A stretch of DNA of 6,669 nt from a virus. Lineage: Duplodnaviria; Heunggongvirae; Uroviricota; Caudoviricetes. Where the stretch lies: the IMG/VR virus record IMGVR_UViG_2671180781_000011; one strand, given 5' to 3'. Of this stretch, positions 1 to 1,851 are shown in pieces (positions within the stretch are counted from its first letter, which is position 1; every line of letters starts with the position of its first letter). The translations under genes and the position numbers were made by a program. The notes below the pieces were generated by a model that was given only the letters and a program-made list of their open reading frames with translations, was not told the DNA's origin and did not search any database.

Positions 1-44
1 GCCCGCTGACGGACTTCGGGGGAAAAACGAGTATTTTTAGTCAT
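1..44 (-). CDS. IS3-family transposase OrfA, N-terminal 14 codons only (partial, continues beyond window start)
   Basis: ATG at 44-42 on the - strand, followed by MTKNTRFSPEVRQR; an AGAGG-like SD lies a few nt upstream on the - strand (complement of about 51-56). Confidence 0.65.
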   Translation of the reverse strand, partial: MTKNTRFSPEVRQR

Positions 45-98
45 CCTGTTTACCTCTTTCTCAGGGAGTTTAGTCTCCAGGATTTCCGGGGCGGTTCA
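1..98 (-). mobile_element. Terminal part of an IS629-like (IS3 family) insertion sequence; the element end is at about position 98 and the rest lies left of the window
   Basis: Reverse complement of 90-98 is TGAACCGCC, a TG-initiated terminal repeat typical of IS3-family ends. Reverse complement of 1-44 encodes MTKNTRFSPEVRQR, which I recognise as the N-terminus of IS629/IS1203-type OrfA. The exact boundary and any target duplication cannot be confirmed with only one end in view. Confidence 0.7.
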
Positions 99-123
99 GA
101 ATGCAACTACACATATTCGTTTT

Positions 124-1851
124 GTGCTGTTGTGCCAGCCTCACGAAAACGTTCGCGAACTGGAGGTCATGACGGGGCTACAGCGCGAGGGCCTGCAGGG
201 ATGGAATCTCGATACGGTAGCTGTCGTTGTAAACGATATCGGAGGATTTGCCACCGCTATGGGATACGAGCAGCTACGGGCTTACACTGGTGGTCTTCCC
301 CTGTATGTAGAGAGCGCCGCAAAAATCGCCGTTTCTGATTATGAGCGTAATGTCGATGCTCTGTGTGCTGAACTCCAGCAACAAACCCATACTGCGGAAA
401 CCGCCCAAGAAATTATTCTGTCACGTGTATTTCAGGGATTTGAATCACTACTTCAGAGCGCGCTGGCATTGTTCAGTCTCTCTGACGTAGGGCTGAGTCG
501 CGAAGAGATTTCTACGCTCCTAATCAATTCGCTGAACATTTCACCAAGCAGTGCTGCTTCTTTAATTAGGAAAATGCGCGCTACTGGCACTATTGAAATT
601 TATGGAAACCAGACCCTGAAGGTACATGATGCTGTCAGGGGGCTAGGACTGCAACATCTGGAACTGATGGATCAGGGTATATCGAACAAAGCGCTACTAG
701 CGCTGAAAGACCTTTTAGTTGAAAGTCTTCATAATACCCGCAATACAAAACGGTTATCGTTGTTGACTCAACTTTATATTAAGCTCAATGATGTCACGAC
801 GTTGATCGAACTCTCAGGCCAAGAAATGTTTTATGAGATGGGCGTGACGGTCGACATTCTTGCAAGCTTGGAGCGTGCTGCAACATCGGACTTATTGGGA
901 CCTGTTCATAAATTCTGGGCATTGGATGGCCTTGTTTTCGTTGAGCTTAAAGACGGAATATCCGACCACATTGCTCAGAGGTTAAACATCATGGGAGCTT
1001 TACTTGCGGAGCACAAGTTCGGCTATCAAGAAGAGATGGCCTATGCAATGAAACGAATGTTATTTTCGGCAGAAAGCAATGATGCACGAGAAGTTCAAAA
1101 GCTGGCACAGGAAGTCCGCCCCCAACTCCCAGATGAAGAACATAAACGCATCTTTGACTACAACCATGCCATTGCACTCTGGAGATTAAAAAAACTCAAG
1201 GATGCTGAAACATTAAGCTGTAATGTTATACAAGGGTACTATTCTTTATTTGGTATCACACCTGCTGATGTCATAGGAAAAAACGCCGACGCATTATGGA
1301 AAACTATTAATCATTCCGAAAATATGCAGGAACACTTTAAACATATGGCTGATGCTCTGGAGTTGCTGGCCAGAATTCGTGATGCGCAGGGAAAACTGTC
1401 ACCATTACTGCGTATTCATTCGATGAAGTTCTACAATCTGGCCATGGCCCCGGAATCCATGGTCAGGGTGGGCCAAGATCTGGCGGATGAGTTTGTTGCC
1501 ATAAAGGATTACGACGGTGCCAAGGAAGTCATGGAGCAACATGTCCTGCCGGTTGTCAATGAGGCAGGTCTAGTACATCGACTGATTCAGGTTCGAAGCC
1601 AATACGCAGTCATATTAGCACTATCGGGTCAGCATAAAGCAGCTGATGTCGAAATGCAGCGCCTTGCTCCCTATATCGAAGGCCTCACAGGTGTACAGCG
1701 TCAAGAAATCCAAAATCAATCAAATTACATCGTACAGCTTGCCCATAAAGCAGCAAAGACTAAATTAACTGAAGTTTTTGGTGCGGTCGGCCGGAATGAA
1801 CAATGCCCCTGTGGCTCGGGAATAAAGTACAAAAAATGTCACGGTGCCTGA
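124..1851 (+). CDS. Large protein of unknown function with a C-terminal SEC-C-type Cys3His zinc-binding motif; likely prophage accessory (moron) gene; 5' end uncertain and possibly disrupted by the adjacent IS
   Basis: 575-codon open frame ending ...EQCPCGSGIKYKKCHGA (CxC-x8-CH, the SecA/YecA-type SEC-C knuckle). GTG at 124 has no SD; the first in-frame ATG at 169 has GGAGG only 2 nt upstream. The frame stays open back to the IS junction at 98/99. Sampled stretches are about 32-42% GC, lower than the downstream phage genes. Confidence 0.55.
   Translation: MLLCQPHENVRELEVMTGLQREGLQGWNLDTVAVVVNDIGGFATAMGYEQLRAYTGGLPLYVESAAKIAVSDYERNVDALCAELQQQTHTAETAQEIILSRVFQGFESLLQSALALFSLSDVGLSREEISTLLINSLNISPSSAASLIRKMRATGTIEIYGNQTLKVHDAVRGLGLQHLELMDQGISNKALLALKDLLVESLHNTRNTKRLSLLTQLYIKLNDVTTLIELSGQEMFYEMGVTVDILASLERAATSDLLGPVHKFWALDGLVFVELKDGISDHIAQRLNIMGALLAEHKFGYQEEMAYAMKRMLFSAESNDAREVQKLAQEVRPQLPDEEHKRIFDYNHAIALWRLKKLKDAETLSCNVIQGYYSLFGITPADVIGKNADALWKTINHSENMQEHFKHMADALELLARIRDAQGKLSPLLRIHSMKFYNLAMAPESMVRVGQDLADEFVAIKDYDGAKEVMEQHVLPVVNEAGLVHRLIQVRSQYAVILALSGQHKAADVEMQRLAPYIEGLTGVQRQEIQNQSNYIVQLAHKAAKTKLTEVFGAVGRNEQCPCGSGIKYKKCHGA

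Follow-up and report, generated by a model that had tools for sequence, protein, structure and literature searches.

Copies of the insertion sequence (IS) IS629, of which IS1203 is an isoform, are known to generate target duplications of 3–4 bp, to reside in prophages in 62 % of cases and to drive deletions in Escherichia coli O157 (PMC3271280). The Avs proteins with Cap4 nuclease effectors studied so far bind a phage protein through a TPR sensor, followed by ATP-dependent tetramerisation, upon which the nuclease becomes active (PMC13581612). Both bear on the DNA analysed here (hereafter the window), a stretch of 6669 bp from IMG/VR record IMGVR_UViG_2671180781_000011 that makes up the entire contig CYBR01000061.1 of the draft E. 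coli assembly GCA_001277515.1. At its left edge, the window carries the end of an IS629/IS1203 copy joined to the 3′ part of a gene that in IS-free genomes specifies a single 932 aa STAND NTPase, and we hold with high confidence that one simple insertion of this element split the prophage gene in two. As described for IS629 in O157:H7 (PMC3271280), the insertion has a 3 bp duplication, a prophage site and a strain-specific (polymorphic) occurrence; the terminal sequence and the orfA start are identical to those of IS629/IS1203, and no mechanistic difference from these elements was seen. What sets it apart from known IS629 insertions is the site itself, codon 349 of the STAND gene, which is occupied in none of 5426 complete E. 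coli genomes; likewise, an exact 40-mer scan of species-representative genomes for the junction returned no matches. We regard the event as a commonplace loss of a prophage cargo gene through insertion of IS629.

The insertion sequence end and the interrupted gene

As a reference for the element we used the IS1203 copy of E. coli PSS-12, which is 1310 bp long and annotated as 'IS3-like element IS1203 family transposase', and to the end of which the first 98 bases of the window are identical at all 98 positions (E 2.6e-47). The inverted ends of the PSS-12 copy read TGAACCGCCCCGG...CCGGGGCGGTTCA, and window positions 98 to 86, taken on the minus strand, give TGAACCGCCCCGG, thereby matching both of them. 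The terminal inverted repeat stops exactly at base 98, from which the minus strand reads TGAACCGCCCCGGAAATCC..., and the terminal repeats are of the TG...CA type found in the IS3 family; in E. coli genomes there are thousands of IS3-family matches to this end. A preliminary description of this DNA had placed the IS end at about position 98, in agreement with these results. With the orfA ATG on the minus strand, IS transcription runs leftward and its promoter is directed away from the downstream open reading frame (ORF), and in PSS-12 the IS1203 transposase coding sequence (CDS) ends at the matching coordinate, 3044. The contig thus begins inside a multicopy repeat, and nothing is present to the left of base 1 because the short-read assembler stopped there. 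Megablast alignments to IS-free genomes began at window position 94; this was rejected as the junction, being a chance similarity over four bases (gttc) followed by a mismatch at 98, and the true junction lies between bases 98 and 99.

Beyond the junction, window positions 99–2100 are present without interruption in 16 of the 5426 complete E. coli genomes, where the stretch from 99 to 1851 shows no differences and belongs to a gene for 932 aa. In the best match, the IS-free strain E. coli Z1322HEC0003, which served as our reference for the intact gene, the same DNA forms the 3′ part of one 2799 bp CDS (WP_000264572.1, 932 aa), to which the window is 100 % identical over the 1753 nt of the remnant. 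Over positions 99–6669 the window is collinear with the prophage of this strain, with six mismatches in total and none within the STAND gene. The IS interrupts the Leu codon 349 between its second and third bases (ct/g; here and below, a slash marks the junction), and the GTG at position 124 and the ATG at position 169 of the window correspond to Val358 and Met373 of the intact protein. IS-free homologues reach 357 in-frame codons upstream of this GTG, to an ATG in proper context. The exact intact protein was found on 383 contigs, and a search of ∼5.8 billion proteins returned 933 relatives. Nearly all of the best 120 clusters (>100 of them, at 49–99 % identity) measure 920–940 aa, with hosts that include E. 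coli, Serratia, Providencia, Klebsiella, Yersinia, Vibrio, Shewanella, Pseudomonas and others, so that within these clusters a length of ∼932 aa is kept across the Gammaproteobacteria; a natural form of ∼575 aa was found in none of them. No match to the intact gene was obtained by megablast against sequenced phages and plasmids. Separately, other E. coli assemblies contribute fragments of 194, 394, 530 and 859 aa to the 90 % cluster of the intact protein; on more than one occasion, therefore, the STAND gene has either been disrupted independently or been truncated by the end of a contig.

The apparent beginning of the ORF in the window can be read against this background. Frame 1 holds a single early stop at 7–9 and is open from base 10 across the junction to the stop at 1849–1851; that it is open from the junction into the ORF had been noted in advance. 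The first canonical start, GTG124, comes 25 nt past the IS end, and the preceding acatattcgtttt contains no purine-rich Shine–Dalgarno sequence, whilst ATG169 has a GGAGG at 162–166, only 2 nt away; on both counts the earlier observations were accurate. So too was the remark that the N-terminus does not resemble a native start, given that '...VLLCQPHENVRELEV...' is the internal ...NATTHIRFVLLCQPHENVRELEVMTG... of the intact protein. The GGAGG before ATG169 lies within the coding region of the intact gene, and so is no purpose-built ribosome-binding site.

These observations decide between the two options originally put forward. In one of them the IS upstream replaced or removed the promoter of a SEC-C ORF that is itself native and complete, and the distance of only 25 nt between the IS end and the first start codon, as well as the GGAGG before ATG169, would be in keeping with it. 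However, identical IS-free DNA continues upstream in frame through the 357 codons mentioned above and is annotated as one 932 aa CDS, the length of the family is fixed near 932 aa among the best 120 clusters, and GTG124 falls within a conserved β-strand of the NTPase core (residues 355–361, in which Val358 lies beside the invariant L359, L360, Q362 and P363). We therefore consider a complete native gene extremely improbable, and the replaced promoter proposed in the preliminary description is not borne out. The other option, in which the IS severed a larger gene from its 5′ part so that a 3′ remnant is what the window holds, is borne out by the 932 aa IS-free homologues; the comparison suggested at the time, namely a search for IS-free homologues that share the GTG or ATG start, uncovered no ∼575 aa form among the best 120 clusters and leaves truncation standing. 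Of the original wording, 'truncated or decoupled', the first term is correct and the second too mild, as the gene is split within its nucleotide-binding domain (NBD).

The far side of the element and the target duplication

If the insertion duplicated GAA, the 5′ fragment is predicted to comprise residues 1–349 and a further 13 aa (NEPPRVSWRVFYL) encoded by the IS right end, up to a stop codon. Exactly this 362 aa sequence is present in the public protein collection (CTS66186, CTU38831, CTW54556 and WP_261289285). The fragments predicted for duplications of 0 and 4 bp (361 and 350 aa, respectively) are absent from the same collection, and a 349 aa version occurs there only in 'partial' form, where a contig breaks off. 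The accessions of the window ORF, CTU38492 and CTW53074, share their prefixes with CTU38831 and CTW54556, and the numbers are nearby.

The 5′ fragment is carried by a sister contig of 5423 bp (assembly GCA_001285525.1). Inspection of the far side of the IS for the missing 5′ portion and for a 3 bp duplication, as recommended in the preliminary description, was performed on this contig and revealed both. The contig ends in ...CTGGATGTTCTGAA/TGAACCGCCCCGGGTTTCC, the last 102 bp being the IS right end with its right inverted repeat (IRR; 102/102 identity). Its junction reads ...GTTCTGAA/TGAACCGCC (...TTCTGAA/, then the IS right end) and that of the window ...CCGGGGCGGTTCA/GAATGCAAC (GGTTCA/GAATGC). 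The IS-free target site is CTGGATGTTCTGAATGCAAC; this GAA stands there once in Z1322HEC0003 and on both flanks when the IS is present. Furthermore, once the two flanks are put together (13,202 bp in all for sister contig 1–5321, the IS and window 99–6669), the intact gene is recovered with no mismatches in 1049 + 1753 nt, and the prophage genes upstream on the sister contig (YdaS/YdaT and DUF977) are the same, and in the same order, as in Z1322HEC0003. The reciprocal junctions, the GAA duplication and the mismatch-free rebuild therefore argue for a single, recent and simple transposition. One IS629/IS1203 copy of 1310 bp would have moved into a lambdoid prophage gene of 932 codons that specifies a one-protein STAND NTPase, entering its Leu codon 349 (ctg) in the opposite orientation to the gene and duplicating GAA in doing so.

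The same junctions bear on whether an IS-mediated deletion or rearrangement might have taken place, in which the 5′ part, perhaps together with neighbouring prophage genes, was lost or moved and the junctions do not stem from one insertion. Such events would fit the IS629-driven deletions reported in E. coli O157 (PMC3271280), the finding that in PSS-12 an identical IS end abuts sok/hokD of a related prophage that has no STAND gene, and the position of the other IS side outside the window. We nevertheless judge this to be very unlikely, as the 5′ fragment breaks off precisely at the shared target trinucleotide and runs straight into the IS right end, the order of YdaS/YdaT and DUF977 on the sister contig is that of the IS-free genome, GAA forms a direct repeat on the two flanks of a gene that can be rebuilt without mismatches, and the protein accessions put both halves in the same two assemblies.

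Simple transposition also has to be set against an assembly artefact, in which IS bases 1–98 were misjoined to the gene by the short-read assembler. The window is a draft contig in its entirety, with a multicopy repeat at its end, and both junction contigs reach only ∼100 bp into the IS, the interior of which was collapsed by short-read assembly. On the other hand, the same window contig was recovered from two samples and the complementary junction contig from three, and the junctions are reciprocal, with the correct 3 bp duplication and with the left inverted repeat (IRL) on one side and the IRR on the other, which a chimera would not yield. A misjoin is, as a result, scarcely credible.

Architecture of the intact protein and fate of the two fragments

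In the intact protein, Pfam detected Cap4_nuclease at residues 25–77 (27.1 bits against a cut-off of 26.2; a marginal match, to the first third of the profile only), AAA_22 at residues 239–364 (32.6 bits against 27) and SEC-C (PF02810) at residues 914–931 (38.8 bits against 20.4; 39.6 bits in the window). An alignment of 71 homologues showed the nuclease residues E53, D55, D57, E59, Q70 and K72 to be invariant (PD-(D/E)xK type), along with G248, G251, G253, K254 and T255 of the Walker A motif GxxGxGKT (248–255), D335 and N336 of Walker B, and L359, L360, Q362 and P363. The P-loop with Walker A and Walker B motifs that marks STAND proteins is thus present in the intact homologue, and the window remnant is without both motifs. 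An AlphaFold2 model of the intact protein (mean pLDDT 80.8) places an alpha/beta nuclease, the P-loop core, helical and winged-helix domains, a solenoid at residues 541–909 (helices mostly at pLDDT 80–97) and a zinc knuckle in this order; as modelled, the protein would have the STAND arrangement of an NBD with helical and winged-helix domains plus a repeat sensor. The best Foldseek match in the PDB was the STAND-TPR protein 6mfv (E 4e-14, 730 columns, template-modelling score 0.61 on the target), with the plant NB-ARC receptors NRC2 and NRC3 next (E about 1e-6 to 1e-5). When solved structures were searched by sequence, only the SEC-C tip was matched, by SecA peptides and YchJ. Matches to PADLOC models were similarly confined to the nuclease end (LmuA, at 5e-07 over residues 26–119, DUF4297 and HamA) and to the SEC-C tip. 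The name given by RefSeq, 'SEC-C metal-binding domain-containing protein', covers 2 % of the protein.

Compared with Avs proteins that have Cap4-type effectors (SeAvs3 and SeAvs7), the 932 aa protein has the same N-terminal Cap4-like nuclease, STAND P-loop nucleotide-binding oligomerisation domain (NOD) and C-terminal TPR-like sensor, and the same prophage and defence-island setting; by analogy, a ligand-triggered oligomerisation that activates the nuclease would be expected (PMC13581612). It differs in size, as SeAvs7 is ∼1450 aa by an estimate from the ∼250 kDa monomeric SeAvs7–MCP–EF-Tu complex (PMC13581612), in its terminal SEC-C knuckle, which is not mentioned in the Avs literature searched, and in showing no match over the NTPase or the sensor to the hidden Markov models (HMMs) of described Avs families in PADLOC-DB v2. 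In the literature searched, we found no mention of WP_000264572 and no report combining SEC-C with Avs. The likeness to 6mfv and to NRC2/NRC3 is restricted to the NOD-plus-solenoid part and to the level of the fold (10–15 % identity), and these proteins have neither a Cap4 nuclease nor a SEC-C motif. SecA, YchJ and the lactococcal antiphage protein 'Rugutis' have in common with it a zinc knuckle of ∼20 residues, CxCxSGx8-9K(C/H), the rest of the 932 aa protein being unrelated to them.

The defence-island context was assessed in three gene neighbourhoods. In E. coli the gene is located in a lambdoid prophage, between replication-region genes and hokD/DUF968/rusA/Q; the Pseudomonas homologue adjoins AbiH, and that of Vibrio cholerae adjoins PIN, AbiH and a Gabija-like OLD-TOPRIM/UvrD pair. 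By analogy with the studied proteins, the intact product most likely works like an Avs anti-phage sensor–effector. We have not assigned it to a named Avs family, because no HMM matched its NTPase or sensor and because SEC-C is not mentioned in the Avs papers searched; apparently, it is a compact, widely conserved and undescribed Avs-like nuclease–STAND protein with a SEC-C tip. More tentatively, and with slightly less than even confidence, we propose a compact 932 aa, uncharacterised family of single-protein antiviral STAND sensors (Cap4–NOD–TPR-like–SEC-C), carried as cargo of lambdoid prophages and of defence islands on integrative and conjugative elements across the Gammaproteobacteria; the allele split by IS629 would then be a naturally occurring form of it that has lost its function.

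In the AlphaFold2 model, residue 349 forms the end of helix 342–350, between the Walker B strand (330–335) and the core strand (355–361). The NBD is therefore cut in two, and for this reason neither fragment should work. The first product, on the other contig, would be the 362 aa fragment consisting of the nuclease, half of the NBD and 13 IS-encoded residues, in which the nuclease, Walker A and Walker B are kept and the remainder of the NOD is lost along with the sensor. The second would be the 3′ remnant of the window, with no promoter of its own, facing away from the IS promoter and with internal codons as its starts; it keeps part of the core strand, the helical and winged-helix domains, the solenoid and SEC-C, and has neither a P-loop nor an effector. 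We infer that both fragments are inactive, and the defence function, if the gene had one, would be lost. Judging by the sequence, the '575 aa SEC-C protein' is most likely a gene-caller artefact on a silent pseudogene fragment.

Compatible with the simple insertion, but in our view quite unlikely, is expression of the 3′ remnant from GTG124 or ATG169 through read-through or a cryptic promoter, which would yield a sensor-only decoy or a dominant-negative protein. The frame is open over the junction, GGAGG precedes ATG169, and the winged-helix, solenoid and SEC-C modules are complete in the remnant. Nonetheless, a promoter scan detected no sigma-70-like site on the plus strand of window 1–760, inspection by eye found no hybrid −35/−10 pair across the junction reaching 4/6 + 4/6 at legal spacing, and the IS promoter reads the opposite way. 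In addition, a 2 nt Shine–Dalgarno spacing is poor, and the product would begin within a core β-strand and carry an unfolded half-NBD. The remnant still matches the intact allele at 100 % identity, so selection has had no time to act on a new role. Less probable still is a modulatory activity kept by the sensor-only remnant or by the nuclease–half-NBD fragment.

A number of points weigh against an insertional loss of a phage-defence gene as set out above. The window ends inside the IS, so that a single IS copy physically linking the two contigs is deduced; the origin of both halves in the same two assemblies is read from accession numbering, and the sister contig that can be displayed comes from a different assembly than the window. 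The IS–gene junction is found in none of the complete E. coli genomes. The defence role of the intact protein against phage is predicted, by analogy, and no model in PADLOC-DB v2 (E ≤ 0.1), the models of which would include the known Avs families with coverage to 2023, matched its NTPase or sensor. There is, lastly, a slight chance that either fragment is expressed at a low level by read-through.

For annotation, CTU38492, CTW53074 and WP_261289285 (362 aa) are the two halves of one IS-disrupted pseudogene and should be flagged as such, the names 'SecA-related metal-binding protein' and 'ATP-binding protein' being unsuited to them. The locus is another case of IS629 reshaping prophage cargo, in which an anti-phage function was probably removed from a lineage. 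Wider interest is confined to the intact gene, in which the SEC-C knuckle has no role assigned to it in the literature searched, and for which the IS-split allele could be used as a natural negative control.

Neighbouring prophage features

The features of the left part of the window and of the adjoining prophage genes are collected in Table 1.

Table 1. Coordinates of the IS end, the gene remnant and neighbouring features in the window
Feature	Position	Strand	Basis or remark
IS629/IS1203 left end (IRL side)	1..98	-	98/98 identity to end of the PSS-12 IS1203 copy
Transposase orfA, first 14-15 codons	1..44	-	ATG 44..42 (MTKNTRFSPEVRQRA); runs off left edge
GAA, right-hand copy of 3 bp target-site duplication	99..101	.	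Empty site of Z1322HEC0003 compared with sister contig and window
3′ remnant of 932-codon STAND NTPase gene	99..1851	+	Last base of codon 349 to stop
575 aa ORF as called by gene finders	124..1851	+	GTG is internal Val358
GGAGG-2 nt-ATG	162..171	+	Internal coding ...L-E-V-M373... in intact gene
Helical and winged-helix domains (residues 386-538)	208..666	+	AlphaFold2; fold match to 6mfv and plant NB-ARC receptors
All-helical TPR-like solenoid, presumed sensor (residues 541-909)	673..1779	+	AlphaFold2 helices; TPR and APC/C-type matches
SEC-C zinc knuckle CPCGSG..KKCH (residues 914-931)	1792..1845	+	Pfam PF02810; SecA C-terminal peptides in PDB
sok	1960-2134		Rfam, 110 bits
mok-like ORF	start 2072		
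hokD	2129-2284		Pfam HOK_GEF
Q antiterminator gene	4144-4839		

Directly downstream of the remnant is a complete hok/sok type I toxin–antitoxin module (window 1960–2284). In PSS-12, the IS1203 copy with the identical end (1789–3098) is situated ∼250 bp upstream of sok/hokD (3352–3784), in a prophage remnant without the STAND gene and with a non-phage substrate-binding-protein gene on its other side; the arrangement suggests an IS-associated deletion or rearrangement within the same region.

Just past the Q gene, at 5050–5299, we found three tRNA genes with the anticodons CAT, TCG and TCT. The first of these (CAT) was called Met by ARAGORN, and the identical gene of Z1322HEC0003 is annotated as tRNA-Ile in RefSeq, implying a lysidine-modified CAT. 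We take the trio to be an ileZ–argN–argO-type cluster, typical of Stx-like lambdoid prophages.

Other genes of the prophage are also damaged. A TerB-family gene (about 5473–5901) is broken by an internal stop, the part that is called being its last 48 codons (5755–5901), and this defect is older than the IS insertion because it is annotated likewise in Z1322HEC0003, which has no IS (10380–10808). Next to the STAND gene on its upstream side, the DUF977 gene is annotated as frameshifted in Z1322HEC0003 (3308–3716), and only 91 codons of it are called on the sister contig (3621–3896). The prophage is thus decaying at several points.

Five of the six differences between the window and Z1322HEC0003 are grouped within 173 bp (3046–3218) of the DUF968/HNH gene (2732–3787), leaving one difference across the remaining ∼6.4 kb; the cluster may represent a small recombination patch. 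Downstream of a DUF3927 ORF, at 6070–6242, there is an Rfam match to the small RNA STnc100 (100.8 bits; gathering score, 47). The right edge of the contig (6380–6669) also interrupts a gene, which encodes a SASA-family carbohydrate esterase with a DUF1737 N-terminus and has a CDS of 1851 bp in Z1322HEC0003; here, another multi-copy prophage sequence probably stopped the assembly.

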